DNA of 64,000 nucleotides from Limnochordia bacterium (GTDB lineage Bacteria; Bacillota; Limnochordia; DTU080; RSA5): positions 203,222 through 267,221 of the forward strand of contig JAWLDA010000005.1 in NCBI GenBank assembly GCA_041686855.1, given 5' to 3'. Below the pieces are notes generated by a model that was not told the origin of the DNA, did no database searches, and saw only the letters and a program-made list of their open reading frames with translations. Below, piece after piece: positions 2,052 through 21,176 of the stretch (positions within the stretch are counted from its first letter, which is position 1; the number at the start of each line of letters is the position of its first letter). The translations under genes were made by a program, and so were the position numbers.

Positions 2052-3879
2052 GGTTGGCGACAAACTAGGTATCGCCTTATCCGGTGGCGGGTTCCGGGCT
2101 TCCTTCTTTCACATCGGAGTCCTCGCCGCATTGGCCGACCGCGACCTCTTGCGCAACGTCGAGGTGATCTCGACGGTCTCGGGTGGCTCCATCGTCGGAG
2201 CGCTGTACTACATCAAGGTTAAACACCTTTTGGAGCGCAAGGAGGATCGCGAGATCACCGCGGTCGACTATCAAGAGTTGGTCTCAGAGCTCGCCGACGA
2301 GTTCTTGGCGACGGTTCAGCGCAACTTGCGCCTTATGGCTTTCGCTAACCCGCTTAAAAACGCCCGGATGGCGCGCGTCGACTACTCTCGCAGCGATCGC
2401 ATGGGTGAGCTCTTCGATCGACTGCTCTACCGGCCGGCCTTTGGTCACCAGCGGCGTGAGCCCGTGGGCATGGAGGAGCTGTTGATCACCCCAAAGGGGT
2501 GGTCGTCGCAAGAATTCTCACCCGCGCAGGCGAACCCACGCCGCCGCGCGAAGGTGCCACTCCTCGTCATCAACGCGACCTCACTGAATACTGGGCGGAA
2601 TTGGCGGTTTGAAGCCACCCGCATGGGCGAACCTGACCGTCGCGGCGCGTTCGCCGCCGACATCGACATGCGTCTGCGCCTGCAACCACTCCCGTCCTAC
2701 GATGAGCTCGGTCCCCGCCGCACGATGCTTCTAGGGCACGCGGTAGCGGCTTCGGCGGCGGTTCCGGCGATCTTTCATCCCTTATCCATTACTCACCTGT
2801 ATCACGAGACTCGCGTGGAGCTGATCGATGGTGGCATTCACGACAATCAGGGAGTCGTCGCACTACTCGATTACCGGTGCGACTCCTTGGTTGTAAGCGA
2901 CGGCAGCTCTCAGATGCACGGCGAGACGCTCCCCGGTACCTCGATTCCGACCGTGTTGATGCGGACCAATGAGATTCTGATGAGTCGTGTGCGCGAAGAA
3001 CAACTGCTGCGGGCCTACCAGTCGCACGGCAAGCGCCTTTGCTTGGCCCATCTGCAGCAGGGGATCTCGGCAGAGTATATCCCGTATCGCACCAAGAATG
3101 GATACAAGGTGTCGGTGAAACGCCCACAACCGTCGGCGACTGGTGACATGCGAGTACACCCTGCAGTGCGTGAGGCGCTTGTCCACATCAGGACAGACTT
3201 GGACGCGTTCAACGACGCCGAGAGTTTTGCGCTGATGCGAACGGGGTATCTCAACGCGGTTAAAAGTTTGCGCGCCTTTGACCGCCCTCGTCGCTACGGA
3301 CGCCTGAGTGCATTTCCATGGCGCTTCGAAGCGGTCGATCCTTTACTCAGCGAGCCGCCGCCCGCCTTCCTCAAAGTGCTGCGGACGTCTTCGGCTAATG
3401 CATTTAAGGTGTTCGCACTTTACCGTGCTCTCACGACCGTTTCAACCCTTCTCGTCGTCGGAGGTTTTGCGCTATGGGGGTGGATGGAGCGGAATCACCT
3501 GTTGGAGCCGATCGTAGAGCTGGCGTGGACACCGACGCGACTATCGGTCCTCTTAGGCCTCGTTTTCGTTGTCGCGGCGGGGATTATGGCGAGTGTACGG
3601 CGAGCGCTGGGCGGGATCGAATCGATTCAGCGACTGTGGAAGGTCGTGCGCACGCCGATCCGCTTTGTAGGCAGGGTGGCATTGCGGGCTGCTCCTTGGG
3701 TGTTGGCAGCCTTTCCGATCTATTTATACGTGCGGCTCGTCAATCCACTCTACCTCAAGGCCGGGCGCCTCGATCGGTTCGGGCCGGGACAAGGCAAGGG
3801 GAGCGCACGTGTTAAGCGCTCTGAGAGCCGGTCTTGGCACCGTCGGCCGAATTCCTCTGCTGCAGCGCCCCCGCGCTGA
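2050..3879 (+). CDS. Patatin-like phospholipase with a C-terminal multi-pass membrane domain
   Basis: A Gly-rich oxyanion motif SGGGFR, a serine nucleophile motif STVSGGS and a catalytic Asp motif IDGGIHDNQG are present. The C-terminal about 200 aa are hydrophobic. The only in-frame start before the patatin fold is TTG at 2050, which sits inside the T-run of the upstream hairpin. The 3' end overlaps the convergent MFS gene. Confidence 0.7.
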   Translation: MVGDKLGIALSGGGFRASFFHIGVLAALADRDLLRNVEVISTVSGGSIVGALYYIKVKHLLERKEDREITAVDYQELVSELADEFLATVQRNLRLMAFANPLKNARMARVDYSRSDRMGELFDRLLYRPAFGHQRREPVGMEELLITPKGWSSQEFSPAQANPRRRAKVPLLVINATSLNTGRNWRFEATRMGEPDRRGAFAADIDMRLRLQPLPSYDELGPRRTMLLGHAVAASAAVPAIFHPLSITHLYHETRVELIDGGIHDNQGVVALLDYRCDSLVVSDGSSQMHGETLPGTSIPTVLMRTNEILMSRVREEQLLRAYQSHGKRLCLAHLQQGISAEYIPYRTKNGYKVSVKRPQPSATGDMRVHPAVREALVHIRTDLDAFNDAESFALMRTGYLNAVKSLRAFDRPRRYGRLSAFPWRFEAVDPLLSEPPPAFLKVLRTSSANAFKVFALYRALTTVSTLLVVGGFALWGWMERNHLLEPIVELAWTPTRLSVLLGLVFVVAAGIMASVRRALGGIESIQRLWKVVRTPIRFVGRVALRAAPWVLAAFPIYLYVRLVNPLYLKAGRLDRFGPGQGKGSARVKRSESRSWHRRPNSSAAAPPR

Positions 3880-5020
3880 TCCCCAGCGCGACGAGTAGGC
3901 CCGCACCGGCCAAGATTGCCGAGAGAGCAAAGAGCATCCTCATTCCCAACACATCCGACAATAACCCGATCGGGTAGAGCACGACGAGGCCGGGCAGGCC
4001 GGCAGTCGCCACGGACCAGGCGCTTTGCCCCTCGGTCCGCCTATGAGAGGGTAGCCGACCGTGCAACAGTGTGACGGCGCCGACGTGAAAGGCTGCGAAG
4101 GTAAAGGCGTGCAGTGATTGCGAGAGCAACAGAAGCGTCGGCGAAACGGTAGCTGCGCAGATGGCCCATCGTACGACGCCTGCACCAATCCCTGTGATAA
4201 AGAGGGCGCGGGCATCGACTCGTCGGGCGATGCGGGGTGTGACCGCCATCAAGACCACTTCGCTGAGGACCGCTATCGCCCACGCGACGCCGATCATCTG
4301 CTCCGTCATGCCCAATTGATCGGCGTAGACGGCAAAGAAGATCTCGTGGGCAAGCCCCGCGCTGCGTCCCAAAATGCCGGCGATGACCGCGAGCCGTACA
4401 TCGCGAATGCTCCAAAGGAGCTTCATGCCCGCCCACGGCGGTGTGAAGCCGCCGGGCGTCACTCCAGGGCCCACTGCCAAGCCGGGAAAGCGTCCCCGGC
4501 GCGCCATGGCAGCGGCCAAGAGTGCCGTCACCCCGAGGACGGCGACGTGGGCGATGACGCTGGCGCCGATCCCCACGCGATCGGCCGCGGCGCCCACTGT
4601 ATACACCCCTGCGATAAAACCGATGGAGCCCCAGAGGCGGATGGGCCCGTAACTCGCCTTGCCCCCGTCGATCGTGCGTAGGGTCGCATCGTCAAGGAGG
4701 GGAGCGACCGGCGCTTTGCCCAGACTCAAGAGGAGGTAGAGGAGGGCGAGAGCCCACAAGCTCTTGGCTCCGATAAAGAGGGCGGACGGGACGAGGGCGG
4801 CGAGTAACACGAGCGGCAGCGTCCACTCCTGTAGGCGGAGTCGTGACGAGAGTGAGATCAGCGCTACCGGTCCAATGAGCGCGGCAAGCGGGCGCATCGT
4901 ACTGAGCAAGCCGATTTCGGCTCCGTCCAATCCGATCCGTTTTAAGTATAGGGCGAGGTAAGGGGAGAGCACCCCAAGCGAGGCAAAGTAGGCAAAGTAG
5001 AGCGATTTGTATGCAATCAC
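3812..5020 (-). CDS. MFS transporter
   Basis: About 12 predicted TM helices with typical MFS composition. The ORF runs to 5062, but a GTG at 5020 preceded by GAGG avoids overlapping the divergent neighbour. Confidence 0.65.
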   Translation of the reverse strand: MIAYKSLYFAYFASLGVLSPYLALYLKRIGLDGAEIGLLSTMRPLAALIGPVALISLSSRLRLQEWTLPLVLLAALVPSALFIGAKSLWALALLYLLLSLGKAPVAPLLDDATLRTIDGGKASYGPIRLWGSIGFIAGVYTVGAAADRVGIGASVIAHVAVLGVTALLAAAMARRGRFPGLAVGPGVTPGGFTPPWAGMKLLWSIRDVRLAVIAGILGRSAGLAHEIFFAVYADQLGMTEQMIGVAWAIAVLSEVVLMAVTPRIARRVDARALFITGIGAGVVRWAICAATVSPTLLLLSQSLHAFTFAAFHVGAVTLLHGRLPSHRRTEGQSAWSVATAGLPGLVVLYPIGLLSDVLGMRMLFALSAILAGAGLLVALGISAGALQQRNSADGAKTGSQSA

Positions 5021-5116
5021 GTCAAAGCCTCGGGAAGTACCGACATAATGCAAGGGTACCACGAGGTACGCGTAACCTTCAACGAGAAAAGAAAGTCCGG
5101 GAGGAGTGAGTGTTCC

Positions 5117-6079
5117 GTGCCACTTGGTTCGTGTGTCGACAGCGTTTTACAGGTGATTGGAAACACCCCGTGTGTGCGACTCAGCAAGCTTTCTGCAAAC
5201 ATACCGGGCAACGTGTACGTCAAATTGGAGATGCATAACCCCAGCGGTGGGTTGAAAGATCGAATTCTATTACACATTGTCGAGAAGGCAGAGCGCGAGG
5301 GGCGATTGCGCCCTGGGATGACGCTGATCGAGGCGACGACCGGGAGCACGGGGATTGCCACGGCGTTGATCGGTGCGGTGAAAGGGTACCGCGTCATGAT
5401 CGTGATGCCGGAGGGTATGAGCATCGAACGGCGCCGAGCGATTCAGACGTACGGCGCCGAAGTGCACTTGACGGCGGGGGGCGGCAGTGACATTGATGCT
5501 GCGATCAGCCGGGTGCACGAGCTGATTCACGAGAGTCCGGAGAAGTACTTTCACATTAATCAATTTGCGAATCCCGAGAACGTGACGGCCCACTACGAGG
5601 GGACGGGCCCTGAGATATGGAATCAGATGGATGGACAGATCGACGCGTTCGTCATGGCCTACGGCACCGGTGCGACCCTCACGGGTGTGGGCCGCTACCT
5701 TAAGGAGCAAAACCCCGCCGTCTACGTCTTAGGCGTTGAGCCGGCGGAGAGTCCGGTGTTGGCCCGGGGGCAAAAGGGGAGTCACCGCATCGAGGGTGTT
5801 GGCGACGGCATCGTTCCTCCGATCTTAGACACCAAGGTGATGGACGACTTGGCGCTTGTCTCGTCCGAGGACGCCTACGCGACCAGCCGACTCATGGCTC
5901 GCGAGGAAGGTATCTTCTCGGGACCCTCCTCAGGCGCCAACGTTTACGCGGCGCTTGAGCTCTCCAAGCGGAAGCCGGAGTTGGCCCACATCGTTACTGT
6001 CCTCGGTGACACGGGATGGCGATACCTTTCGGTTGACGGAGGCCTGGTCCCCCAAGGGACCTTTACATGCACGCCGTAA
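5117..6079 (+). CDS. Cysteine synthase / cystathionine beta-synthase family PLP enzyme (CysK/CysM-like)
   Basis: The VIGNTPCVRL motif, the NPSGGLKDR PLP-lysine motif and a Gly-rich loop are present. The ORF opens at 5048, but a GTG at 5117 with RBS GGGAGGAG 10 nt upstream gives the usual short N-terminus. Confidence 0.7.
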   Translation: MPLGSCVDSVLQVIGNTPCVRLSKLSANIPGNVYVKLEMHNPSGGLKDRILLHIVEKAEREGRLRPGMTLIEATTGSTGIATALIGAVKGYRVMIVMPEGMSIERRRAIQTYGAEVHLTAGGGSDIDAAISRVHELIHESPEKYFHINQFANPENVTAHYEGTGPEIWNQMDGQIDAFVMAYGTGATLTGVGRYLKEQNPAVYVLGVEPAESPVLARGQKGSHRIEGVGDGIVPPILDTKVMDDLALVSSEDAYATSRLMAREEGIFSGPSSGANVYAALELSKRKPELAHIVTVLGDTGWRYLSVDGGLVPQGTFTCTP

Positions 6080-6096
6080 CGGGACTTTAGGCTCCT

Positions 6097-7173
6097 ATGG
6101 AGTTTTACTATAAGAAAGGGCGTAATACACAGATGAAAGCAGGAGTGAATAAATCCATACACTCGGTCTCCGAACTCGAGGAGGCATTGTCGGTTCCTAG
6201 CCCCGAGCTCGTTGAAGAGGTGAGCTCTTGGGACGACGGATTAATGGTCTTGGGTGCAGGGGGCAAGATGGGACCCACGCTCTGCCGCATGGCGGCAAAT
6301 GCGTTCCGGGAAGCAGGGAAGAGCCACACCGTCACGGCAGTCTCCCGCTTCTCTAACCCCGAGGAGAAGGAGAAGCTCGAGGCGGCCGGAGTAAGGACGA
6401 TCAGCGCAGATCTCATGGACAGGCAGGCGGTCGAAGCGCTGCCCGACTGTAAGAATATCGTCTTTGCTGCGGGCCGGAAGTTCGGCTCCACTGGGGCTGA
6501 GTCGCTCACATGGGCGATGAACGCGTACTTGCCCGGCATTGTAGCGTCTCGCTTCACCAACTCCCGTATGGCGGTCTTTTCGAGCGGAAACGTCTACCCC
6601 TTCTTGCCGCCCGTTACAGGCGGGTGCACCGAGGAGACGCCGCCCAATCCCTTGGGTGAGTACGCACAATCGGTGCTGGGACGCGAGCGCATCTTTGAGT
6701 ACTTCAGTCATACGTACGACGTTCCGATGACGATCGTACGGCTCTGCTACGCTGTTGAGTTGCGCTATGGGGTCCTGGTTGACCTAGCTCAGACAATCCA
6801 CGCGGGTCAGCCCGTCGACCTGACGATGGGTGCCGTCAACGTGATTTGGCAGCGGGATGCGAACGACTACGTACTCCGCTCTCTCTCAATCGCAGACTCG
6901 CCGCCGACCTACTTTAACCTGACAGGGCCCGAAACGGTCTCCGTGCGCGGGGTCTCTCAAAAGCTCGCTCAGGCGCTGGGTAAAGACGTGGAGTTCGTCG
7001 GTGAAGAGGCGACCGCGGCGCTCCTCGTCGACGCGTCACAATGCTTCCGCCAATTCGGCTACCCCAAGACAAGCCTTGCCGAGATGATCGAACGAGTCGC
7101 GGACTGGGTGAAACGCGGTGGAGAGACACACGGCAAACCGACCGGTTTCCAAACGCGTGACGGTAAGTTTTAA
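6097..7173 (+). CDS. NAD(P)-binding Rossmann-fold protein (NAD-dependent epimerase/dehydratase-like)
   Basis: An N-terminal GAGGKMG dinucleotide-binding motif is present. No clear YxxxK motif was seen, so the family assignment is tentative. Confidence 0.5.
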   Translation: MEFYYKKGRNTQMKAGVNKSIHSVSELEEALSVPSPELVEEVSSWDDGLMVLGAGGKMGPTLCRMAANAFREAGKSHTVTAVSRFSNPEEKEKLEAAGVRTISADLMDRQAVEALPDCKNIVFAAGRKFGSTGAESLTWAMNAYLPGIVASRFTNSRMAVFSSGNVYPFLPPVTGGCTEETPPNPLGEYAQSVLGRERIFEYFSHTYDVPMTIVRLCYAVELRYGVLVDLAQTIHAGQPVDLTMGAVNVIWQRDANDYVLRSLSIADSPPTYFNLTGPETVSVRGVSQKLAQALGKDVEFVGEEATAALLVDASQCFRQFGYPKTSLAEMIERVADWVKRGGETHGKPTGFQTRDGKF

Positions 7174-7239
7174 ACGTACGCCATACGAAACATGTGGCGG
7201 TGAGTCGGTAGCGGTAAGTCTTAAGTTGAGGTGATTTAG

Positions 7240-8295
7240 GTGACGATCCAAGAGTTGCGTCATGCGCTCTTTGACAGTGCAGTGATCCCCGCGCATCCGC
7301 TGGCGCTTACGGCTGAGCGGAAGTTGGACGAGCGCCGCCAAAGGGCGCTCTCGCGCTACTATCTGGACGCCGGAGCAGGTGGACTGGCAGTTGGTGTGCA
7401 CACGACGCAGTTCCCCATACACGACAACGGCATGCTTGAACCTGTCTTGTCGATGGCGATCGAAGAGGTGCACCGACACGAGCGCGAGACGGATCGCAGT
7501 CTCATTAAGGTCGCGGGCTTGGTCGGGAAGACGGAGCAGGCGGTACGGGAGGCCAAACTCGCCCGAGAGCTCGGCTACGACGCTGGCCTCCTGAGTGTAG
7601 CTGCCTTTAAGACGGCGCCCAACGAGGAGATTTTGGCCCACTGCCGTCGCGTTGCCGAAGAGCTACCGGTGATCGGTTTTTACCTGCAGACGGCGGTGGG
7701 CGGGCGCTTGCTCGACTACGCGTTTTGGCGCGAGTTCTTTGAGATCGAGCGTGTGGTCGCTGTGAAGGCGGCCCCCTTTGATCGGTATCAAAGCCTCGAC
7801 GTGATGCGGGCGTTGGCCGACTCGGGTCGGGCCGACGAGATCGCTCTGTATACGGGGAACGACGACCACATCATCCTCGACCTCATCGGCCAGGCGCGCT
7901 TCTCGACGCGAGCCGACGCACCGGCGGTCGGCTTTGTGGGCGGTCTCCTCGGCCAGTGGGCCTGCTTTACCAAACCCGCCGTTGAGATGCTGGCTCGCCT
8001 GCGTGAGCTGCGTTTGAGCGGGGACCCGATCCCCCAAGATCTGATCACGTTGGCGCACATGATGACGGATATCAACAGCGTTGTCTTTGACGTACGCAAC
8101 AACTTTAAGGGTGTCATCGCAGGGATTCACGAGGTACTCCGTCGCCAAGGACTCCTTGAGGGCATTTGGTGTCTGGACCCTGAGGAGGATTTGGGACCCG
8201 GACAAAATGAGGAGATCGATCGCATTTGGCGAGATTACCCGGAGTTGAGGGACGACGAGTTTATCCAGGAGAACCTCGATCGCTGGCTCTCGTAA
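7240..8295 (+). CDS. Conserved hypothetical protein, possibly a TIM-barrel aldolase-like fold
   Basis: A 351-aa ORF with good coding character, but no motif I can name with confidence. Confidence 0.4.
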   Translation: MTIQELRHALFDSAVIPAHPLALTAERKLDERRQRALSRYYLDAGAGGLAVGVHTTQFPIHDNGMLEPVLSMAIEEVHRHERETDRSLIKVAGLVGKTEQAVREAKLARELGYDAGLLSVAAFKTAPNEEILAHCRRVAEELPVIGFYLQTAVGGRLLDYAFWREFFEIERVVAVKAAPFDRYQSLDVMRALADSGRADEIALYTGNDDHIILDLIGQARFSTRADAPAVGFVGGLLGQWACFTKPAVEMLARLRELRLSGDPIPQDLITLAHMMTDINSVVFDVRNNFKGVIAGIHEVLRRQGLLEGIWCLDPEEDLGPGQNEEIDRIWRDYPELRDDEFIQENLDRWLS

Positions 8296-8299
8296 ACGC

Positions 8300-9547
8300 G
8301 TGAGGCGCGACCGTATCGCAGGGAGGGAACGAACAGTGGCGCAACTGCTCTTAGGTACGGCGGGGACGGTGATCACGCCGCCCCTCGGACTCTTTTTGGC
8401 GGGGTACGGCTTCCGAGACCGCGGTGCCGACGAGGTGTTGGATGAGATCGAGGCGCGCGTCTTTTGGCTTCAAGTCGACGATGGTACGGGCAAGCTTGAG
8501 GACGCGTGCATCATTACAGCGGACCTGATCGGGTTCGGTAAGGCGTTGACGGCGGCGTTGCGACGCCAACTCTCTGAGCGTTTCGGCTTGGCGGCGGAAC
8601 GGCTCACGTTGGCGGCGAGTCACACTCACTCCGGTCCCCAGACCTGTGAGAATATGACGACAGCGGGCGGGCACCCCGATCCTGATTATATCGCCTCTCT
8701 CCAAGAGCGGCTGATCGAAGCTGTCGGTGAAGCTCGCTCCAAGCTGCGGCCGGTCACTTTGCGCAGCGGCCTGGGTGCGCTCAGTGGGTTTGCGATCAAC
8801 CGCAGAGTGCTCGTCAACGGCAAGGCCGTCGCCGCGCCCAATCCCAAAGGGGTAAGGGACGACCAAGTGACCGCCCTACTCTTTCAAGACGCCGCCAACG
8901 GCGAAGTGGCAGCCGTACTCTACCACTACACGTGCCACCCTACCACCATGGGAAGTTACAGCGTCACAGGCGATTACCCGGGAGCGGCACGTCGCCGCCT
9001 GGAGAAGGAGTTTAGCGGCGCGGCATGCGGCTTCTTGCCGGGCTGCTTCGGAGATGTACGGCCGGCGTGTACACTTGTCGGCGGAAAGCAGTTTCGGCGC
9101 GGTACCCCCCAAGATGTGGCCGCATTCGGCAACGCCCTGGGTGATGAGGTCGCTCGGGTGGTCTACAGCATCGCCGACTCTGAGGCCGCGTTGCATGAGC
9201 CCCACATTTCAGGGGCGCGGACGGATCTACAACTCCCACTGGTCGATGGGAGCAGCGCCGAACTAAGCGTGCAGCGGTTGGACTTCGCCCCTGATCTCGC
9301 ACTCGTCGCCATGGGCGGCGAGATTTGTGTTGATTATGGCCACTGGATCAAGGCGATGCGGCCAGGTAAGACGACCCTCCCTGTCGGCTACTCCAACGGG
9401 TTGGTGGGCTACATCTCTTCCGAGCGCATGTTTCCTGAGGGCGGATACGAACCGGACACATCGATTCGCCCCTTTAATCTACCGGCGCCATTCGAGCCGC
9501 GCATCGAGGGCCTGCTTTTGGAGGCCGTCAAAGGCCTTCTCGCGTAA
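8300..9547 (+). CDS. Neutral/alkaline ceramidase N-terminal-domain-like protein
   Basis: The pattern ITPPLGLFLAGYG ... DLIGF ... ASHTHSGPQ matches the ceramidase N-terminal domain signature. Confidence 0.45.
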   Translation: MRRDRIAGRERTVAQLLLGTAGTVITPPLGLFLAGYGFRDRGADEVLDEIEARVFWLQVDDGTGKLEDACIITADLIGFGKALTAALRRQLSERFGLAAERLTLAASHTHSGPQTCENMTTAGGHPDPDYIASLQERLIEAVGEARSKLRPVTLRSGLGALSGFAINRRVLVNGKAVAAPNPKGVRDDQVTALLFQDAANGEVAAVLYHYTCHPTTMGSYSVTGDYPGAARRRLEKEFSGAACGFLPGCFGDVRPACTLVGGKQFRRGTPQDVAAFGNALGDEVARVVYSIADSEAALHEPHISGARTDLQLPLVDGSSAELSVQRLDFAPDLALVAMGGEICVDYGHWIKAMRPGKTTLPVGYSNGLVGYISSERMFPEGGYEPDTSIRPFNLPAPFEPRIEGLLLEAVKGLLA

Positions 9548-9614
9548 GAGCACGACCAACGCGCCCCCACATCCATTAACGGCACGGCGTCGCTGCCACG
9601 GCCCAAGCACCACG

Positions 9615-9668
9615 CGAAAACGAGCCTCTTGAAACCTTCGCTGAAAGGTTCCAAGAGGCTCGTTTGAT
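9615..9668. terminator. Bidirectional intrinsic terminator between convergent genes
   Basis: A 13-bp perfect stem AACGAGCCTCTTG / CAAGAGGCTCGTT with a nested AACCTT/AAGGTT stem. It is flanked by an A-run upstream and TTTGATG downstream. Confidence 0.55.
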
Positions 9669-9688
9669 GTACGCGTCGTCAGGTACGC

Positions 9689-11068
9689 TTAGGCTGTCGC
9701 TGGACGGTAGAGATTCCAACTGCCGATCGCATCCGGATTCCCTGTGTCGTCCGCCAGCAGCTCCTCGTAATTCTCTGCCGCTTTGCGGAACGCGTTGGCG
9801 TACTCTTCGATGATTTGGGGGCGGTAGTGCTTAAACCACGGTATGCTGTAGAGTCGAGCGCTGATCGAGTCGGTGACAGGCAGATCCCGGTCGAGCTCGC
9901 GCACGTCCCTGGATGTATGAGCGATGCGAGTCGGCTTGCCGTCTCCATACACGTCGGCCTCTTGAAAGAGCGGGTGTGTATGCAAGGGCTTGTTCGCTCC
10001 AGGACTGGTGGACGCACCTTCGGCGCGTACCGCGGCACAGAAGCGCTGGACGGAGAGACCGCCCAACTCCTCCGGTACGTAGATGCCCTTCGCAGCGTAC
10101 CAGCCCGCCATGTCCGACCCGGAGTCTTTGGGTGGCCGGTGTGCCCGCAGGCCAGGCACGCCCTCAAGCAGATCCCAGAAGTAGTTCATCGCTTTGCGAA
10201 TCTCTTGACAACGCTCGTCGTAATATTTGAGTTGCACCCGGCCGACCGCAGCGCTTAACTGGTGCATGCGGTACTTGTAACCGCCCAGGGGCAGTCCGGC
10301 CATCGGCGTTAGATCTTCGGATTGGACGAAATTATCGTTGTAGCGATCGTAGTGGCCAAGCGCGATGCCGCGCTCGTAGATCTCCCGATCGTTGGTGGTC
10401 AAGATGCCGGCTTCTCCGATAGCAAAGGACTTGCCTGCCATCAACGAGGCGGCGCCGACATGGCCGATCGAGCCGAGCTTGCGTCCCTTATACAGCCCAC
10501 CTTGGGCGTGGGAGACGTCCTCGATCACTTTGATGCCGTGCTTCTCGGCAATCGCCATAATCGGGTCCATGTCGCAGGGGTGACCGACGTAGTGAACGAC
10601 AATGATCGCTTTGGTGCGGTCTGAAATCCGTTTCTCGATGTCGTTAGGATCGATACATAGGGTTGTCGGATCCACATCGGCGAAGACCACGGTGCCACCA
10701 AGCGAGTAGACCGGCAAACAAGACGCCCAGTAGGTGAGACTGGGGCAAATCACTTCGTCTCCCCGCCGCACGCCGCACGCCCACATCGCCGCCTGCAGAG
10801 CGGCCGTGCCGTTGTGGAATCCGAGAGCGTACTCGGTTCCCTGCCATGCGGCGTACTCTTTCTCAAACTGTTGAGTGACGTCGGTTTGCGACATCGCACC
10901 ACGACGCAGTACCTCGAGGGCGGCTGCTTCGTCCTCCTCGGTGATAATCGGCCATTTGAACATGTCGCCCGCAGGTGACTGGACAGCTTTAGGTCCTCCA
11001 AATAGGGCCAATTGCGACTGGGTACTCAATCTAATGGGCTCCTTTCGTATTGCCAACGATGCGTTCAA
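9689..11068 (-). CDS. DegT/DnrJ/EryC1/StrS-family PLP aminotransferase (sugar aminotransferase) with a C-terminal extension
   Basis: The family core and the PLP-lysine region (LMAGKSFAIGEAG) are recognisable. It is 459 aa, compared with about 370-400 aa typical for the family. Confidence 0.75.
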   Translation of the reverse strand: MNASLAIRKEPIRLSTQSQLALFGGPKAVQSPAGDMFKWPIITEEDEAAALEVLRRGAMSQTDVTQQFEKEYAAWQGTEYALGFHNGTAALQAAMWACGVRRGDEVICPSLTYWASCLPVYSLGGTVVFADVDPTTLCIDPNDIEKRISDRTKAIIVVHYVGHPCDMDPIMAIAEKHGIKVIEDVSHAQGGLYKGRKLGSIGHVGAASLMAGKSFAIGEAGILTTNDREIYERGIALGHYDRYNDNFVQSEDLTPMAGLPLGGYKYRMHQLSAAVGRVQLKYYDERCQEIRKAMNYFWDLLEGVPGLRAHRPPKDSGSDMAGWYAAKGIYVPEELGGLSVQRFCAAVRAEGASTSPGANKPLHTHPLFQEADVYGDGKPTRIAHTSRDVRELDRDLPVTDSISARLYSIPWFKHYRPQIIEEYANAFRKAAENYEELLADDTGNPDAIGSWNLYRPATA

Positions 11069-11193
11069 CGCGTCACCATTTTATTCAGCGGGAACTTAAA
11101 AGCCCCTTCATAATTTCTTGCGTTTTCCAGAAAAAATGGCAATAGCGCGTTTCGAGGACGGGGCAATAGGAAATGGAAGGAGAATCTTGAAAA

Positions 11194-11207
11194 GTATCCT
11201 AGGATAC
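11194..11207. promoter_or_regulatory. Perfect 14-bp palindrome GTATCCTAGGATAC, candidate operator
   Basis: It is an exact reverse-complement palindrome 20 bp upstream of the ROK gene start, in the divergent DegT/ROK intergenic region. Confidence 0.35.
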
Positions 11208-11226
11208 GCGAAAGGATGGCACCCCG

Positions 11227-12441
11227 GTGTATGAGTCCGACTCATTACGTGGATTAATCGTCCGATACGGGAGTCTCATCAGTAATATTATCGAACGGGG
11301 GCCGCTGACGCGGGGCCAACTTGGCGCCGCTCTCAAAGTAGCCCAACCGACGATTACGCGTCGAACGATGGAGCTGATCGAGGCCGGCCTGCTTTACGAG
11401 GGTGAAATTGCCTCGGAAGAGAGTCGCTTGGGCCGGCCTTCCAGAAGACTTCACGTTAACTCCGATGCAGCGTATGTGGCGGCGCTCCACTTGGGCCGTG
11501 TCGACGTCGAGATCGGCCTGGTCAACCTGGCCGGCGAAGTGGTCGCTAAACGGACGCTCGACGCGGATCCGGCCGAGGAGGAGGCGCCGGTTGAGTCGAT
11601 CGACCGCGCCGTTGACGCACTGGGATCGCTGTGGGACCAAATCGAGATTCCCCACACAAAGGTTTTGGGCTTGGGTGTCGCTACTACCGGCGTCGTCGAC
11701 GCAGCGACCGGCACCGAAGCCCGCTTTTGGTTGCGGGGTGGACGTCTGGTCCGCACCGACGTTCCGGTGCGAGAGCGACTCGCTGCGACAGTGACGCTGC
11801 CAACGGTGATCGAGACCAATGCGTGGGCGATGGCGATGGGCGATCGCTGGTTTGGCAACCGGATGAGAGACTTTGCGCTCTTTCATGTGAATGCCGGCGC
11901 CGCTGCGGCGCTGGTCGTAAACGGCGCGCTTTATCGAGGGCAAGGCGCCGCAGGAGAGATCGCGCACACGCGCGTTGGTGGCAGTCGCCGTCCGTGTTCA
12001 TGCGGGAAGAGGGGATGTTTGGAGGCCGTCGTTTCGAGGGCTGCGATCCTGGCTGAGGTCGAACGGTATCAGAAGGTGTCGAGCATCTGGGACGTCGTGG
12101 AGTTGGCCAATAGCGGAGATCCCGACGTGCTGGAAGTCCTTGCCGAATGCGCTGAGGCGATTGGTCCGGCGTGCACGTCGATCGTCGACCTGTTGGATCC
12201 CAGGGCGCTCGTCGTCTCGGGTCCAATCTTTAGCGTGCCGCATGTCTTTAACGCAGTCGAAGAGTTTGTACGCCAAAATTCATTTACCGGACGTATGGGC
12301 CGAGTGCAGGTTTGTCGCTCACCATTGGCGGCGGACATCGCCCTCGTCGGCGCCGGCAGCCTTGTCATCGGTTCGGTGCTCTCCGGGTCGTTGCCGCGCC
12401 TGCGCCGGACAACCCGCAAGAGCATGGCCAAGTCGAGCTGA
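11227..12441 (+). CDS. ROK-family transcriptional regulator (NagC/XylR-like)
   Basis: An N-terminal wHTH and the ROK zinc motif CSCGKRGCLE are present. GTG start at 11227 with AAAGGA 10 nt upstream. Confidence 0.7.
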   Translation: MYESDSLRGLIVRYGSLISNIIERGPLTRGQLGAALKVAQPTITRRTMELIEAGLLYEGEIASEESRLGRPSRRLHVNSDAAYVAALHLGRVDVEIGLVNLAGEVVAKRTLDADPAEEEAPVESIDRAVDALGSLWDQIEIPHTKVLGLGVATTGVVDAATGTEARFWLRGGRLVRTDVPVRERLAATVTLPTVIETNAWAMAMGDRWFGNRMRDFALFHVNAGAAAALVVNGALYRGQGAAGEIAHTRVGGSRRPCSCGKRGCLEAVVSRAAILAEVERYQKVSSIWDVVELANSGDPDVLEVLAECAEAIGPACTSIVDLLDPRALVVSGPIFSVPHVFNAVEEFVRQNSFTGRMGRVQVCRSPLAADIALVGAGSLVIGSVLSGSLPRLRRTTRKSMAKSS

Positions 12442-12494
12442 GTACGACCGTACCTTACGCTGTTGACGACTATCTAGGAGGTTGCACGTTACAC

Positions 12495-13532
12495 ATGGCT
12501 GAGAAAAAGCTTAAATTAGGTATCCTTGGTCTGGGTCGCAGTGGTTGGAACATTCACGCCCGTGGGGTAAAGGACCATGCGCTCTTTACCGTGGCTGCGG
12601 TGGCCGATCCCGTCGCAGAGCGGCGTCAAGAGGCGATCGATACGTTTGGATGTAAAGCGTACGAGGAGCCGCAAGGGGTGATCGCCGACTCCGACGTCGA
12701 TGTAGTGGTCGTCGCGACGCCGTCTCACACGCACGTGCCCCTAGCGGTTCAAGCGCTTGAATCCGGCAAGCACGTCATCGTGGAGAAGCCGATGGCTGAG
12801 AAGGCGAGCGACATCGATACGATGATTCAAAAGGCCAAGGAGACGGGGCGGCACGTCACCTGCTATCAGCCGCGTCGCTTCGACGCAGAGTACCTGGCCA
12901 TCCGCTCGCTCATCGACGAAGGCCGGTTGGGCCGCATCGTCATGGTGCGTCGTACCGCACACGGCTTCCAACGTCGAGCCGACTGGCAGATGCTGCGCAA
13001 GTACGGCGGTGGCGAACTCTCCAACACGGGTCCGCACCTCCTCGATCAGGTGCTCCAGCTCTTGGGCGAAGGGGAGCTCGAGGTGTTTGCCGACCTGCAA
13101 CATACCGTTGGCGCGGGAGACGCCGAGGACCACGCCAAGGTAGTTATCAAGAGTGCGTCGGGTGCCGTCGCGGACGTAGAGATTACACGCTGCAGCGCCT
13201 TCACGCAAGAGCCTTGGTTTATCATGGGCACGCAGGGCGCCGTCAAGGGTACCACCAAGGAGCTTCACGTGAAGTGGTACGATCCGTCCACCCTAGGTGA
13301 GCTCGTCGTCGAGGAGGGCCCCGCCGCCGGCCGCCGCTACGGGACGGGCGAGGAGATCGAGTGGCACGAAGAAGTGATCACGCCAAAGCTCGAGGCGCCT
13401 CAGGTGGTCCAGTTCTACAACGCGTTCTACGACACCATCGTCAACGGCGCGCCGTTGTTCGTTACGCCTGAGAGCATCCGCACCCAAATCGAAGTGATCG
13501 ACCGGGCGCGCCAGGTAGCCAACTACGCCTAG
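12495..13532 (+). CDS. Gfo/Idh/MocA-family NAD(P)-dependent oxidoreductase
   Basis: The N-terminus MAEKKLKLGILGLGRSGWNIH carries the Rossmann GxGxxG motif. ATG at 12495 follows AGGAGG. The ORF extension up to 12312 overlaps the ROK gene and was rejected. Confidence 0.75.
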   Translation: MAEKKLKLGILGLGRSGWNIHARGVKDHALFTVAAVADPVAERRQEAIDTFGCKAYEEPQGVIADSDVDVVVVATPSHTHVPLAVQALESGKHVIVEKPMAEKASDIDTMIQKAKETGRHVTCYQPRRFDAEYLAIRSLIDEGRLGRIVMVRRTAHGFQRRADWQMLRKYGGGELSNTGPHLLDQVLQLLGEGELEVFADLQHTVGAGDAEDHAKVVIKSASGAVADVEITRCSAFTQEPWFIMGTQGAVKGTTKELHVKWYDPSTLGELVVEEGPAAGRRYGTGEEIEWHEEVITPKLEAPQVVQFYNAFYDTIVNGAPLFVTPESIRTQIEVIDRARQVANYA

Positions 13533-13728: not shown

Positions 13729-15165
13729 GTGATCGTGCTGGGAAGAGTGAGCTGGAGCGGGAGTCTGGGTCGGCGGTCGGGAATCGTCGTGGCGCTCGTT
13801 CTCGTGCTGGTGACAGCGCTTGGATGCTCGGCCCCCTCCGACGATTCGTCGCCGGGCGGGCAATCACAGGCGGAGGGGGCACGCGAACTGCCCGCCGCCG
13901 ATAACTCGGCCGGTGCTTTCGTCGAGTCATTCACCCTTGAGAACGGGTTACAGGTTTACGTCACTGAGCGTCGGAGCGCACCGGTGGTTACGGTCATGCT
14001 CGGTTATCAAGTGGGCTCGCGGGACGAGCCGATTGGAAAGCGGGGAATGGCTCATCTCTTCGAGCACATGCTGTTTAAAGGGACGCCTCAGTTTGGACCG
14101 GGAGAGTACGATCGCCTGATTCAGTCGGTCGGCGGTTCACTCAACGCATTCACGTCGTTCGACATGACAGGGTACTGGGCTACGGTCCCCTCGTCCCGAC
14201 TCGACCTCGTCCTTCAGCTGGAAGCGGATCGTATGGAGAACACCTTGATCACCGAAGAGGCGCTGAAGAGTGAGCGGGAGGTCGTGAAGGAGGAGTACCG
14301 CCTGCGCATGCAAAACGCCCCGGGCGGACTCGCGGTGAATCACCTCTTCGCGTCGGTCTTCAAGGAAACGCCGTACGCCTGGACAGCAAGCGGCTTTCTC
14401 GAGGACCTTGATCAGATTGCGACGGATGATTTGCTTCGTTTTTACAGGCAGTATTACTCGGTGAACAATGCGGTCCTCGTCGTCGTCGGCGATGTCGAGC
14501 CGGACCAAGTCTCCGACCTGGTCAAACGGCACTTTGGTGATCTGCAGCCGCGGACCCAACCCGAGCGAGAGTCGGTGGAGGCCCGCTCCATTCCTGAGGG
14601 CCGACCCGTAGCGGAGGTCGTCTATCCGGTCCAGGCACCGCTGTTGGTGGGCGTCTACATGCTGCCTGCAGCGGGAGACCCCGATGCTCCAGCGTTGGAG
14701 GTGTTGGGCGCGCTGCTCTCTCTCGGCGAAAGCAGCCGGATGCATGACGAGGTGGTGCGCACTCGGCAAGTGGCAGTGGCAGCCTCCGCCGGCCCACTCA
14801 CGCTTAAGGATGCCGGCCTGTTTGTGTTGGAGGCGGTGCATACCCCCGCTGTCTCTGTAAACCAGGTCAAAGAGGCGCTCGAAAGCGTGGTTGCCGGGGT
14901 TGTCGCGAGCCCGCCGACTTCGGATGAGTTGCGCAAGGCAATCAATCAACTCACGCTCGTGCACGCCCTGCAGCTTGACTCAGTGCACAGTACGGCGATG
15001 GGCCTCGCCGAGGCGACACTCCTCTCCGGCGATCCCACGACATTCACTCAGGCCCTCGAACGGTATCGCGCGGTCAGTGTTGACGACGTGGTTAGAGTCG
15101 CCAAGGAGTACCTGGTAAGCCAATCGGCCCAGTGGGTGAGCGTCGCGCCGGGCGAGGATTCTTAA
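13729..15165 (+). CDS. M16-family zinc peptidase (insulinase-like), lipoprotein
   Basis: The inverted zinc motif HLFEHMLFKG (HxxEH) is present. The N-terminal signal peptide carries a lipobox-like LGC. Confidence 0.75.
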   Translation: MIVLGRVSWSGSLGRRSGIVVALVLVLVTALGCSAPSDDSSPGGQSQAEGARELPAADNSAGAFVESFTLENGLQVYVTERRSAPVVTVMLGYQVGSRDEPIGKRGMAHLFEHMLFKGTPQFGPGEYDRLIQSVGGSLNAFTSFDMTGYWATVPSSRLDLVLQLEADRMENTLITEEALKSEREVVKEEYRLRMQNAPGGLAVNHLFASVFKETPYAWTASGFLEDLDQIATDDLLRFYRQYYSVNNAVLVVVGDVEPDQVSDLVKRHFGDLQPRTQPERESVEARSIPEGRPVAEVVYPVQAPLLVGVYMLPAAGDPDAPALEVLGALLSLGESSRMHDEVVRTRQVAVAASAGPLTLKDAGLFVLEAVHTPAVSVNQVKEALESVVAGVVASPPTSDELRKAINQLTLVHALQLDSVHSTAMGLAEATLLSGDPTTFTQALERYRAVSVDDVVRVAKEYLVSQSAQWVSVAPGEDS

Positions 15166-15189
15166 GCGGAACGAGGAGGTTGAGGACGA

Positions 15190-16671
15190 GTGAGAAGACA
15201 GATACGCATGATGGGGCGACGATCCGGGGCGTTGGTCGTGCTCATCCTATTGGCCGCCGCCGCAGGAGTGGGAGGCTCTTTGCCGCTGATGGCGGCGACG
15301 GACCAAAGCCTAAAGCCCACGCCGATCGAGATCAATCTGCCTGAGGTGACTGAGACGACGTTGCCTAACGGTCTCCGACTCATTGTAATGGAGCGCCACA
15401 GTGCACCGTTGGTCAACCTGTCGCTGGTGGTGCCCGTCGGACACGTTCACAGCCCTCGTGAACAACCGCTTTTGGCTGAGATGACCGCCGTCTTGTTGGA
15501 GGGTGGGACCGAGCGCCTTAGCGCACGGGAGCTGGCCAAGCAGCTGGAGGAGCTGGGGGCAAACGTGAGCGCCTCGACGGCTGCGGACGATTCGACCTTG
15601 AGCGTGACGGCCGTCTCGCACGAGTACCAGCAAGCGTTGGCTCTCTTAGCGGAGATGGTGACGGGGCCGGCGTTCCCTGAAGCGGAGCTCGCGTTGCGCA
15701 AAGAGATGACTCACGCCGCGCTTGACGGTATGAGGGACGATCCGGCTCTGTTAGCTAAGGCGCACGCCGAGGCCATGGTGTACGGCTCGGGGCATCCTTT
15801 GGGAGCGTATCCGACGCACGCGGAGGTTGACGCATTGAAGGTCGGCGATCTGCGCTCCTTTTACCGACAGCACTGGCGGCCACAGGGAGCGAGGCTTCTA
15901 GTAGTCGGTGACGTACGGACAGACGACGTCGTTGCCGCGGTGACGGAGCAGTTTGGACGTTGGAAGGAGAACGCCGACGCTCCGGCCGACCCGACGCCAC
16001 CCGCGGGAGTACGTGCGCTGAAGGGGCCGCGTGTCCGCTTCGTCGAGAAGCCCGGTCTCTCTCAGGTCTCCATCCACCTCATGCAGCCGGGCATCCCTTG
16101 GAACGATCCGCGGCACATCCCGAGCGGTATGTTCACGGCTGCCCTCGGAAACGCGGGATTCTCCTCACGATTGATGGGAACAGTGCGTGATCGAGACGGT
16201 CTGACGTACGGCGTGAGTGCCACACAGTCGTCGACAGCGCAGAGTGGCACCTACTCTATCGCCACGTTTACCGGCACGGAGACGTTGGGGGCGATGATGC
16301 AAACGTTACGTAAGGAAGTGACCACCTTTGTAAGAGACGGCGTCACCCCTGACGAGCTGGACGTGGTGAAGTCACTCTGGGTCGGCTCGTATCCCATGCG
16401 CTTTGACTCGTTGGCGGGGATGGTCGGTGAAGTGCGGCGGGCGCTCTCACGCGGTGAGACGCTCTCGGCGCTTGAGCGTCGGGCATTTACCTACGACTCG
16501 GTGCAGTTGGAGCAGGTGAATCGGACGCTGAAGGAGTTGCTCTCACCGGACTCCTGGGTGATCGTGTTGGTCGGCGATCCGGCGGCCCTCCAGGAGGCGC
16601 CCAATGAGATTTGGGGCGTGCCGCTGGAAAAGGTCGAGCGCGTAAGCTGGACGGACCCGATCGACGGATAA
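15190..16671 (+). CDS. M16-family peptidase, non-catalytic partner subunit (no HxxEH)
   Basis: M16 fold-like composition and a signal peptide, but no HxxEH motif. GTG start at 15190 with RBS GAGGAGG 9 nt upstream. Confidence 0.65.
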   Translation: MRRQIRMMGRRSGALVVLILLAAAAGVGGSLPLMAATDQSLKPTPIEINLPEVTETTLPNGLRLIVMERHSAPLVNLSLVVPVGHVHSPREQPLLAEMTAVLLEGGTERLSARELAKQLEELGANVSASTAADDSTLSVTAVSHEYQQALALLAEMVTGPAFPEAELALRKEMTHAALDGMRDDPALLAKAHAEAMVYGSGHPLGAYPTHAEVDALKVGDLRSFYRQHWRPQGARLLVVGDVRTDDVVAAVTEQFGRWKENADAPADPTPPAGVRALKGPRVRFVEKPGLSQVSIHLMQPGIPWNDPRHIPSGMFTAALGNAGFSSRLMGTVRDRDGLTYGVSATQSSTAQSGTYSIATFTGTETLGAMMQTLRKEVTTFVRDGVTPDELDVVKSLWVGSYPMRFDSLAGMVGEVRRALSRGETLSALERRAFTYDSVQLEQVNRTLKELLSPDSWVIVLVGDPAALQEAPNEIWGVPLEKVERVSWTDPIDG

Positions 16672-16698
16672 TCGCCGACAAATCGGCAGAGAAGAAGA

Positions 16699-16725
16699 GG
16701 CCGGCGTCCATCGAGACGCCGCGCC
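16699..16725. terminator. Short GC hairpin between convergent genes (candidate bidirectional terminator)
   Basis: Stem CGGCGTC / GACGCCG with loop CATCGA. Flanking runs are pyrimidine-rich rather than clean U-tracts. Confidence 0.35.
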
Positions 16726-16761
16726 CCTTCTCATAGGATCCCTCATAATATGGCATATGGC

Positions 16762-18351: not shown

Positions 18352-18461
18352 GGCACAAACCTCCTATGACGGTGCATTCCGTTAAAGAGTTTCCGTGCCC
18401 CTTCGCTGTTATACTCCGCACGAACGATGCCGGGCTTGGGCGTGGGTGGCCTGTCCCATCG

Positions 18462-19553: not shown

Positions 19554-19589
19554 TAAAGTACACTCCCGGCTTGTCATCGATTATGGTAC

Positions 19590-19630
19590 AAAAAGGAGCC
19601 CCTCGCTGACGCTGGTTCGGCGAGGGGCTC
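19590..19630 (-). terminator. Rho-independent terminator after the Mn-catalase/coat-F operon
   Basis: An 11-bp stem GAGCCCCTCGC / GCGAGGGGCTC. On the minus strand it is followed by TTTTTGT. Confidence 0.6.
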
Positions 19631-19667
19631 TCCGATTCCTAGTTGGATATCATGGCACAAGGATGCC

Positions 19668-19928: not shown

Positions 19929-19948
19929 GCGAATCACCTCCGGGGCGT

Positions 19949-20140: not shown

Positions 20141-20214
20141 TGGGCGTGCACCTCCTTTATTAGGTTTCCCTCTTCACGCACAAGAGTGAGTATCAGCCTA
20201 TCACTAGTCGATAC

Positions 20215-21081: not shown

Positions 21082-21176
21082 TTTCCAAATCCCCTCCCCA
21101 CAAGTGTTAACGATTGGTAGGCTCTCCGGCGCGGGGGTGGGTATGCACGGCAAGATCTGACAGGCGAGATGGATCG

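Follow-up and report, generated by a model that had tools for sequence, protein, structure and literature searches.

Adjacent genes for a Gfo/Idh/MocA (GFO) oxidoreductase and a DegT-family aminotransferase are known from several biosynthetic systems, including GnnA/GnnB, WbpB/WbpE, NtdC/NtdA, and inositol dehydrogenases paired with inosose aminotransferases (StsC, BtrS, MosB); their chemistry presumably takes a sugar or cyclitol carbon from hydroxyl to keto to amine. On the catabolic side, nan clusters combine NanA, NanE/AGE, NanK/ROK, NagA, NagB and YjhC/NanOx. The ong cluster of Pseudoalteromonas encodes the catabolism of oxidized chitin (GlcNAc1A), in which an N-deacetylase, a pyridoxal-phosphate (PLP) deaminase of fold type III related to D-threonine aldolase (D-TA), RidA and an SSS transporter lead to a 2-keto-3-deoxy acid (PMC9537276; PMC12017989). 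Here we describe a block of seven consecutive genes and a 14-bp palindrome from an uncultured Limnochordia bacterium (assembly GCA_041686855.1, contig JAWLDA010000005.1), located within the 64-kb stretch of DNA that was analyzed (contig positions 203,222 to 267,221; hereafter, the window). The genes encode a cysteine-synthase-like enzyme (CysK-like), a short-chain dehydrogenase/reductase (SDR), a divergent relative of NanA and dihydrodipicolinate synthase (DHDPS; hereafter NanA-like), a ceramidase-like protein, a DegT aminotransferase, a ROK-family regulator and a GFO oxidoreductase of 345 residues (GFO345).

We read the region, with a probability of roughly 0.45, as a lineage-specific assembly of independent, widespread and uncharacterized modules that degrade an N-acylated amino sugar, amino-sugar acid or aminocyclitol; our confidence in any specific substrate is much less than in this general amino-sugar-type catabolic reading. 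The core of the region is best seen as the set formed by the ROK regulator, DegT, GFO and a candidate amidase, the ceramidase-like protein. ROK-controlled sugar catabolic clusters are already known as a kind; we found no described pathway with this particular set of enzymes, in line with the original prediction from the sequence, and a search of the literature on PF04734, ceramidase-like deacetylases, DegT/MocA catabolism and inosamine catabolism returned no paper on these families and no matching pathway.

Families were assigned with Pfam and NCBIfam hidden Markov model (HMM) scans, with scores read against model cutoffs, and start codons were adjusted by comparison with relatives and by ribosome-binding sites. 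Coordinates and scores are collected in Table 1. The CysK-like, SDR, NanA-like and ceramidase-like genes lie on one strand with gaps of 40–66 nt and end at a strong hairpin, likely a bidirectional terminator, that they share with the convergent DegT gene. DegT and ROK diverge over a 197-bp spacer, and GFO345, which begins 53 nt after ROK, is annotated as co-transcribed with it. The open reading frame listing and the HMM scans uphold the seven genes and the families first proposed for them.

The evidence for an amidase comes from the ceramidase-like protein (403 aa). Its AlphaFold2 model (pLDDT 93.5) has significant structural matches in the PDB only to neutral ceramidases, namely PaCD of P. 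aeruginosa (2zws, Foldseek E 6e-29) and human ASAH2 (4wgk), with TM-scores of 0.80–0.82 when normalized to the query and about 0.5 when normalized to the target. In a profile of 30 family members, the invariant residues H96, H98, R157, H201, E329, Y352 and Y359 align with the HTHSGP, NR, H, E and Y..Y positions of PaCD, whose catalytic site we take to consist of His97, His99, Arg160, His204, Glu411 and Tyr448; the assignment of zinc ligands rests on this list. Given the fold match and the aligned catalytic-site residues, the protein is probably a zinc-dependent amide hydrolase, and specifically a cytoplasmic “mini” zinc amidase and candidate de-N-acylase. It differs from the neutral ceramidases (PF04734) in several respects. 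At about 400 aa, compared to 630–690 aa, and 14–17% identity, it lacks both the C-terminal Ig-like domain (PF17048) and an internal insert of about 80 residues, so that only the N-terminal-domain Pfam model matches; no signal peptide is evident, and the protein begins at the first beta-strand.

The mini-ceramidase family is also found in amino-sugar loci rather than sphingolipid loci. A profile scan of one genome per species gave 80 ceramidase-like loci, 78 of which had their neighborhoods analyzed, and 80 loci were taken from a metagenome scan for DegT in which at least 595 of 600 matched stretches were confirmed. GFO genes occur in 26 of the 78 ceramidase-like neighborhoods (mostly at position −1) and DegT genes in 25 (mostly at ±1). 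Other recurrent neighbors are sugar ABC permeases and binding proteins, NagA-like, AraC, SIS_2, NagB-like, GlcNAc 2-epimerase, ROK, SSS, and TIM barrels resembling xylose isomerase (XylTIM), and loci with amino-sugar genes were found in Paenibacillus, Bacillaceae, Armatimonadota, Chloroflexota and Limnochordia. Several arrangements recur. Sutcliffiella and Fredinandcohnia carry an SSS-AGE-ceramidase-like-NagB-NagA-SIS-ROK operon, with related forms in Paenibacillus and Paenactinomyces that have ROK upstream; a DegT-XylTIM-GFO-ceramidase-like operon is followed by ROK in Laceyella and by a GntR-type gene in Paenibacillus; and in Paenibacillus and Cohnella, GFO and an AraC gene on the opposite strand accompany ceramidase-like, DegT, solute-binding protein (SBP) and permease genes. 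DegT orthologs share 60–73% identity across phyla, among the matches listed. Those adjoining or near a ceramidase-like gene in Armatimonadota, Paenibacillus and Cohnella are 62–70% identical to the DegT of the window, and those in AraC-DegT-ceramidase-like operons are 64–70% identical. Natural fusions join the ceramidase-like domain to NagB/6PGL (6-phosphogluconolactonase; P0097, 692 aa) and to Amidohydro_2 (P0069, 701 aa). This context of NagA, NagB, AGE, SIS, DegT and GFO argues for a carbohydrate-type N-acyl substrate over ceramide. The ceramidase-like protein was also considered as an analog of NagA; this was rejected because many loci hold both genes. In one Paenibacillus DegT/GFO/ceramidase-like locus (L045, 7091–8776), a 561-aa product was judged by eye to fuse a xylose-isomerase-like TIM barrel to a NagB-like domain.

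Three lineages of near relatives retain the block to different degrees. Lineage A, which comprises the window and L083/L084, is fully syntenic, with 83–90% identity over the block genes (67% for the neighboring patatin-like gene and 78% for the MFS transporter). Lineage B (L172/L173/L174/L091; 75–83% amino-acid identity to the window) has the order GFO442-DTA-CysK-like-SDR-NanA-like, then a convergent DegT gene, then ROK-GFO345-ceramidase-like-2-hydroxyacid dehydrogenase-DUF4145, and finally a convergent IlvD/Edd gene and an ABC exporter. Here GFO442 denotes a second GFO oxidoreductase, whose full-length orthologs (439–442 aa, with N- and C-terminal GFO domains) occupy the same position in L083 (86% identity) and L172 (77%) as the truncated first gene of the window, and DTA is a D-TA-family gene directly upstream of CysK-like, which in L172 lies between it and SDR. 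DegT is again divergent from ROK, across spacers that have diverged from that of the window. Lineage C (L085/L086; 52–72% identity) keeps only patatin-SDR-NanA-like-GFO345-SBP-2-hydroxyacid dehydrogenase. Relative to lineage B, the window has patatin and MFS genes inserted between DTA and CysK-like, and a block with M16, catalase, OYE and Mn catalase genes between GFO345 and the 2-hydroxyacid dehydrogenase, IlvD/Edd and ABC genes, which adjoin the cluster in lineage B and now lie at 21285–27273. The MFS_1_like transporter is kept in L083 and absent from lineage B, and a distant homolog (22% identity) lies two genes from DegT and ceramidase-like genes in P. mendelii (L036). The window and lineage B carry different ceramidase-like paralogs at different positions, with 30% identity to one another and the zinc site in both; the independent presence of a different paralog in each lineage argues for selection that keeps an amidase there.

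Absence of co-conservation in related genomes had been named beforehand as grounds for refuting the original prediction; the block is kept in lineage B, and refutation on those grounds therefore fails. The suggestion that the first reading frame of the window and the adjacent D-TA gene share the theme of the block also stands, as they form one operon with CysK-like, SDR and NanA-like in lineage B. The same suggestion for the second D-TA gene does not hold. That gene is 41% identical to the first, lies unlinked 20 kb away, and is absent from the block in relatives, and we rejected it as a member of the cluster. The seven genes are likewise not a single unit, given that outside the near relatives (lineages A and B) homologs of CysK-like, SDR and NanA-like were found in 0 of 78 ceramidase-like and 0 of 80 DegT loci.

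That last result is one of several that weigh against our reading of the region as an assembly for amino-sugar-type catabolism. The modules travel independently, and the neighbors of DegT orthologs are heterogeneous (Amidohydro_2 in 14 of 65 loci, GFO in 7 and ceramidase-like in 4). Lineages A and B are close, and their shared order could reflect inheritance rather than selection. No kinase, NagA or NagB gene was found in the window cluster. With a score above the cysK cutoff, CysK-like may be no more than a cysteine synthase. The best PDB relative of DegT is Fic25 (183 bits; PDB 8GYH), an enzyme of ficellomycin biosynthesis that acts on a carrier-protein-bound amino acid derivative and not on a sugar, and hence is no guide to a sugar substrate. 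Evidence for the ROK operator, described below, comes from two lineages only, which is thin support. Lastly, we found no characterized member of the ceramidase-like, long-form DegT or SDR/NanA-like families, and every substrate named here is thus inferred.

Some of these points lead to the strongest alternative, an accidental juxtaposition of three or four unrelated units (a housekeeping cysK, the SDR/NanA-like pair, the amidase, and DegT/ROK/GFO) that adjoin one another in this lineage alone and have no common pathway. We consider this doubtful, though it accounts well for modules that are independently distributed, for an SDR/NanA-like pair that often stands alone as a two-gene unit, for a CysK-like protein above the cysK equivalog cutoff, for a palindrome confined to the DegT/ROK spacer, and for patatin, MFS and stress-gene insertions, which indicate a region that tolerates unrelated genes. 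It accounts less well for the block in lineage B, which persists entire although genes have been rearranged and spacers have diverged, or for the recruitment of two different ceramidase-like paralogs. GFO345 also bridges the modules, its ortholog adjoining SDR/NanA-like in L085 (64% identity) and ROK in L091 and L172 (76%), and GFO-family genes lie beside the SDR/NanA-like pair in L169 as well. The close spacing of the four-gene strand, with its one strong terminal hairpin, is a further point against chance.

The DegT and GFO proteins bear on whether the pathway builds or degrades its substrate. The DegT product, translated from a TTG start at 11029 behind the ribosome-binding site GAAAGGAG, has a lysine in AASLMAGKSF that matches the PLP lysine of Fic25, perosamine synthetase and others, and not the histidine of the dehydratase subgroup. 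Among NCBIfam models it scores highest with PseC, ArnB and the LegC family, in each case far below the cutoff (182 vs. 423 for PseC), which leaves it with no characterized ortholog. Its best PDB relatives, namely Fic25, perosamine synthetase, 2-deoxy-scyllo-inosose aminotransferases and ArnB, are biosynthetic enzymes. GFO345 has GLGRSG and VEKP (EKP) motifs, an N-terminal Rossmann domain and a C-terminal alpha/beta domain; it is not an IolG ortholog (128 bits vs. 355), and its nearest structures are uncharacterized oxidoreductases, DgpA 3-oxidases, and inositol and levoglucosan dehydrogenases. At loci with long DegT orthologs (L089–L168) the commonest neighbor is Amidohydro_2 (PF04909, about 290 aa), followed by GFO and by a protein of about 270 aa that resembles the M55 D-aminopeptidases by eye; long DegT and Amidohydro_2 may be another uncharacterized module.

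A GFO and DegT pair is the classical sign of biosynthesis (GnnA/GnnB, NtdC/NtdA, IolG with an inosose aminotransferase), and on that ground the product of the block could be an amino sugar or aminocyclitol that serves in a surface glycan, as a compatible solute or in a secondary metabolite, with the other genes tailoring it. The biosynthetic roles of the best PDB relatives of DegT point the same way, as do a PGM/PMM gene and a ManC-like nucleotidyltransferase gene located just upstream, on the other strand, in lineage B. However, HMM scans found no glycosyltransferase, nucleotidyltransferase, acetyltransferase (including N-acetyltransferase), NDP-sugar dehydratase, flippase, polymerase, nonribosomal peptide synthetase or polyketide synthase gene in the block, nor does it hold nucleotide-sugar genes, and all NCBIfam equivalog scores of the window proteins are far below cutoffs for the known pairs. 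An amidase stands where a biosynthetic cluster would have its N-acetyltransferase, and it is accompanied by transporters and by a ROK or AraC regulator, which suggests the reverse, catabolic direction. The loci of relatives are dominated by uptake transporters, AraC/GntR/ROK regulators and NagA/NagB, and both the aldolase and the IlvD/Edd dehydratase are of types that act in degradation. We therefore regard a biosynthetic role as unlikely, and count the missing biosynthetic hallmarks, together with intact active sites in the amidase, DegT, NanA-type, GFO and ROK proteins, in favor of amino-sugar-type catabolism.

SDR and NanA-like are a separate, strictly paired module. SDR is directly upstream of NanA-like in 7 of 7 contexts, some of which include GFO genes and sugar ABC transporters, and the NanA-like family has at least 8000 homologs at about 60% identity, many in Acidobacteriota. 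In the SDR protein the GxxGxxG motif and the catalytic tyrosine are invariant, whereas none of the seven sequences compared (window, L083, L085, L087, L169, L170 and L171) has the lysine of YxxxK, the residue there being V, C or A. The family thus lacks the canonical Ser-Tyr-Lys arrangement of extended SDRs, and may have an unusual catalytic arrangement or serve as a non-redox partner. K116, in a GRKFG motif, and R184/R186 are also invariant. The AlphaFold2 model of the NanA-like protein (pLDDT 90.6) is a NanA/DHDPS TIM barrel, with NanA lyases, DHDPS, HOGA and keto-deoxy-acid (KDG-type) dehydratases as best folds (15–20% identity, Foldseek E about 1e-14). In the family profile, three invariant elements align with those of NanA: K176 with its Schiff-base lysine, Y148 with its catalytic tyrosine, and T55-T56 with its GSTGE carboxylate motif. 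Scores are far under the NCBIfam cutoffs (26 bits vs. 281 for NanA, 15.8 vs. 206 for DapA, 17.5 vs. 278 for KdgD), and orthology is not indicated.

These matches raise the question of sialic-acid-like nonulosonic or octulosonic acids (Neu5Ac variants, legionaminic or pseudaminic acid, KDN, Kdo) catabolized under the ROK regulator. In such a scheme the NanA-fold enzyme would release pyruvate, the amidase would remove the N-acyl group, and DegT, GFO and SDR would dismantle the (di)amino-deoxy-hexose. The best folds and profile matches of the NanA-like protein are indeed N-acetylneuraminate lyases, and the top DegT models, though below cutoffs, are those of PseC, ArnB and the LegC family. The NanA-fold lyase, ROK, GFO and MFS/SSS families of nan clusters recur in the window or in related loci, as GlcNAc 2-epimerase, NagA and NagB do in the latter. 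All nan-cluster families, among them GFO enzymes such as YjhC/NanOx, occur around ceramidase-like genes. Against this, the lyase is a remote relative of NanA by identity and by score, the ROK protein is a regulator and not a kinase, and NanE, NagA and NagB are missing from the window. Outside this lineage the NanA-like/SDR pair does not accompany ceramidase-like or DegT genes, and the SSS-AGE-ceramidase-like-NagB-NagA-SIS-ROK operons have no lyase. Nonulosonic acid catabolism is very unlikely as a complete explanation.

The ong pathway provides another comparison, which is one of logic only. The window encodes a D-TA-like PLP enzyme, a candidate N-deacylase and a 2-oxo-acid lyase, and related loci include SSS and RidA genes. 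By eye, RidA/YjgF-type genes (133–138 aa) lie between ceramidase-like and DegT in L012 and L037, and in L023, a locus with no DegT call, another adjoins the ceramidase-like gene. Their presence, recalling OngD, suggests a reactive imine or enamine intermediate. OngB is D-aminoacylase-like, whereas the candidate deacylase of the window belongs to another superfamily. KdgK, OngA, RidA and SSS genes are absent from the window, leaving the D-TA-family PLP enzyme as the one member in common, likened to OngC by family and not by sequence; compared to an ong-type set, the window has DegT, the CysK-like gene, the SDR/NanA-like pair and two GFO genes in addition. The best NCBIfam model of the window D-TA protein is BhcC (3-hydroxy-D-aspartate aldolase), far below cutoff, and a homolog with 38–40% identity lies near DegT and ceramidase-like genes in Paenibacillus qinlingensis (L037). 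Metabolism of D-amino or hydroxy-amino acids, in which the PLP enzymes, an N-acyl-amino-acid amidase and a 4-hydroxy-2-oxo-acid aldolase would act on amino acids, might be read from the three PLP enzymes of the block (D-TA-like, CysK-like and DegT), the BhcC match, HOGA among the top folds and the Fic25-type DegT, but it is the least probable of the alternatives, given that two GFO proteins, ROK, the IlvD/Edd sugar-acid dehydratase and the amino-sugar context of the amidase family point to carbohydrates. Because amino-sugar acids are chemically D-amino acids, it partly merges with the catabolic reading that we favor, of which it and the nonulosonic scheme are possible sub-cases.

Under amino-sugar-type catabolism, a substrate would be taken up by a transporter for which the MFS_1_like protein is a candidate. 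The cytoplasmic amidase, whose fold and metal site are described above, would then remove the N-acyl group, and DegT would transaminate the amine to a keto group; the D-TA-like enzyme could possibly also deaminate a 2-amino-aldonate in the manner of OngC, the deaminating dehydratase. The GFO enzymes would interconvert keto, hydroxy or lactone forms, and the NanA/DHDPS-fold enzyme, which has its catalytic residues, would cleave or dehydrate a 2-oxo-3-deoxy acid together with SDR. Until it binds a sugar effector, ROK would repress its own gene, GFO345 and the divergent DegT through TCCTAGGA-centered palindromes. The DegT/GFO/amidase trio would run the logic of the biosynthetic triad of oxidoreductase, aminotransferase and N-acetyltransferase in reverse. 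A wider proposal, on which we place only a limited likelihood, is that amidase, long DegT and GFO form a widespread and undescribed transaminase-dependent route for amino sugars or aminocyclitols (de-N-acylation, transamination to a keto sugar, and reduction) that bypasses the NagA/NagB phospho-sugar route. In a bolder variant that includes the patatin-like lipase, the amidase would act on (di)amino sugars derived from glycolipids, for example GlcN/GlcN3N of the lipid-A type, and strip their fatty N-acyl chains; the proximity of a lipase to an amidase of the ceramidase fold may be a hint that the substrate is lipid-linked. The patatin gene is missing from lineage B; it lies beside the cluster in lineage A, and in lineage C its counterpart (52% identity) immediately precedes the SDR and NanA-like genes.

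The amidase of about 400 aa with a ceramidase fold and the atypical-SDR/NanA-fold pair represent large families with intact active sites and clear partners, yet no characterized member was found. Assignment of their substrates would close gaps in our picture of how amino sugars, oxidized chitin products or acidic sugars are recycled by bacteria of soils and sediments, and would correct misleading “ceramidase” and “dihydrodipicolinate synthase” annotations. Compact versions of the module occur in cultured strains of Paenibacillus, Cohnella and Laceyella, so the substrates are open to direct testing; the block is a lead for enzyme discovery and no surprise in principle.

The regulatory part of the proposal depends on the ROK protein and the palindrome. 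NagC and Mlc models align with the protein from residue 21, and Lmo0178 and Mlc structures from residues 13–16, so that the N-terminal winged helix-turn-helix is covered. It resembles NagC, Mlc and Lmo0178 in this domain, in the ROK sugar-binding domain with its zinc motif (CxCGxxGC, here PCSCGKRGC), and in having a palindrome in a divergent promoter region; the kinase motif DxGxT is degenerate (LHLGRVD). Identity to NagC/Mlc is about 25–30%, as estimated from bit scores, and the NagC and Mlc cutoffs are far from reached. The perfect palindrome GTATCCTAGGATAC is separated by 19 nt from the ROK GTG start at 11227, much as first reported, and sits between the likely promoter region and the ROK ribosome-binding site, a position that suggests autoregulation. 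Length alone was rejected as a measure of its significance, as the window holds six perfect 14-bp palindromes compared to about four expected. The core TCCTAGGA, however, occurs only once in the window, where CTAG is six-fold depleted (37 observed vs. about 226 expected from base composition), and it is found once in each sister-lineage locus compared (L091, L172 and L173), always in the DegT-ROK spacer, as TTCCTAGGAA. Its uniqueness in the window and its recurrence in the orthologous spacer make the palindrome a plausible ROK operator. The spacers of the window and lineage B can be aligned in short blocks only; when they are anchored on CTTGAAAA, the lineage-B palindrome matches the half-site TAGGAAA of the window, while the perfect palindrome of the window is on the other side of that block. 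That the motif is retained at a shifted position speaks for a functional operator. The CCTAGG-centered candidate is unlike what we take to be the NagC/Mlc consensus. Two further perfect 14-bp palindromes, TTCAAGCGCTTGAA at 12748–12761 and AACGGCGCGCCGTT at 13443–13456, lie inside the GFO345 coding sequence, probably by chance.

No second copy of the palindrome within 3 mismatches was found in the window, including upstream of the CysK-like operon. A single regulon for all seven genes was rejected, as the palindrome is confined to the DegT/ROK spacer, and the operon from CysK-like to the amidase is probably under separate control. The original prediction of seven genes under ROK thus survives in part: the palindrome core is kept in the DegT-ROK spacer, but the seven genes do not form a single evolutionary unit and probably do not share one regulon. 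Its guess of an amino sugar or aminocyclitol-like compound fits the cross-phyla loci with ceramidase-like, DegT, GFO and ROK genes, which are rich in amino-sugar genes; for the direction of the pathway and its substrate, both the prediction and our reading are inferential.

The CysK-like gene is tied to the block in this lineage only. Its product scores 270 bits against PALP and passes the cysteine synthase models by a narrow margin (TIGR01139, 361.5 vs. 350.95; TIGR01136, 367.4 vs. 344.15), and the gene has the ribosome-binding site GGAGGAG 10 nt upstream of its GTG start. It belongs to a clade with 77–91% identity, beyond which there is a gap to proteins annotated as cysteine synthase A at 58% or less. 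The asparagine loop reads TTGSTG instead of the canonical (T/S)SGNTG; some relatives at 55% identity also have TTGSTG, and others TTGNTG. The protein lacks a C-terminal extension of about 30 aa present in its nearest cysteine synthase A relatives.

Table 1. Features of the block and of the surrounding window. Positions are those of the window; bit scores are followed by the model cutoff where one applies.
Feature	Position	Strand	Details
GFO442-type: C-terminal part of a Gfo/Idh/MocA oxidoreductase of about 440 aa	13–726	+	weak GFO_IDH_MocA_C3 match; 5' end cut by window edge
Fold-type III PLP enzyme, D-threonine-aldolase/D-serine-dehydratase-like (D-TA)	783–1907	+	Ala_racemase_N and D-ser_dehydrat domains
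Patatin-like phospholipase, 609 aa	2050–3879		hydrophobic C-terminal region
MFS_1_like transporter	3812–5062	-	divergent from CysK-like operon; Pfam MFS_1_like 186 bits
CysK-like, cysteine-synthase-family PLP enzyme	5117–6079	+	first gene of four-gene operon
Atypical extended SDR (epimerase/dehydratase-like Rossmann protein)	6133–7173	+	Pfam Epimerase E 7e-11
NanA-like, divergent member of NanA/DHDPS class I (Schiff-base) aldolase superfamily	7240–8295	+	Pfam DHDPS 30.8 bits vs. 22.1
Ceramidase-like, “mini” neutral-ceramidase-fold protein (ceramidase-N-like)	8336–9547	+	Pfam Ceramidase_alk N-terminal domain 48.9 bits vs. 32.1
Inverted repeat between convergent ceramidase-like and DegT genes	9618–9665	.	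21-nt arms; -38.5 kcal/mol, z -5.1
Long-form DegT/DnrJ/EryC1/StrS PLP aminotransferase, 446 aa	9689–11029	-	Pfam 273 bits vs. 19.8
Putative degenerate half-site TAGGAAA	11167–11173	.	where lineage B carries the full TTCCTAGGAA palindrome; alignment anchored on CTTGAAAA
Perfect palindrome GTATCCTAGGATAC, candidate ROK operator	11194–11207		overlaps ROK promoter or 5' untranslated region
ROK-family transcriptional regulator (NagC/Mlc/Lmo0178 type)	11227–12441	+	ROK 128 bits
GFO345, Gfo/Idh/MocA NAD(P) oxidoreductase, 345 aa	12495–13532	+	PF01408 92.8, PF22725 74, PF02894 50 bits
2-hydroxyacid dehydrogenase (+), MFS (-), IlvD/Edd dehydratase (-)	21285–25489		
Second D-TA-family PLP gene	30804–31877	-	beside EamA transporter gene

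An Rfam scan of the window found no riboswitch or other RNA family, and counts from a promoter and terminator scan were not above those of shuffled controls. The second MFS gene, among the displaced genes at 21285–27273, has no counterpart in lineage B. Between GFO345 and those genes, positions 13729–21153 hold an oxidative-stress and protease block (two M16 peptidases, a haem catalase, an OYE flavin reductase and a Mn catalase) that looks like an inserted island, because lineage B carries none of these genes there.

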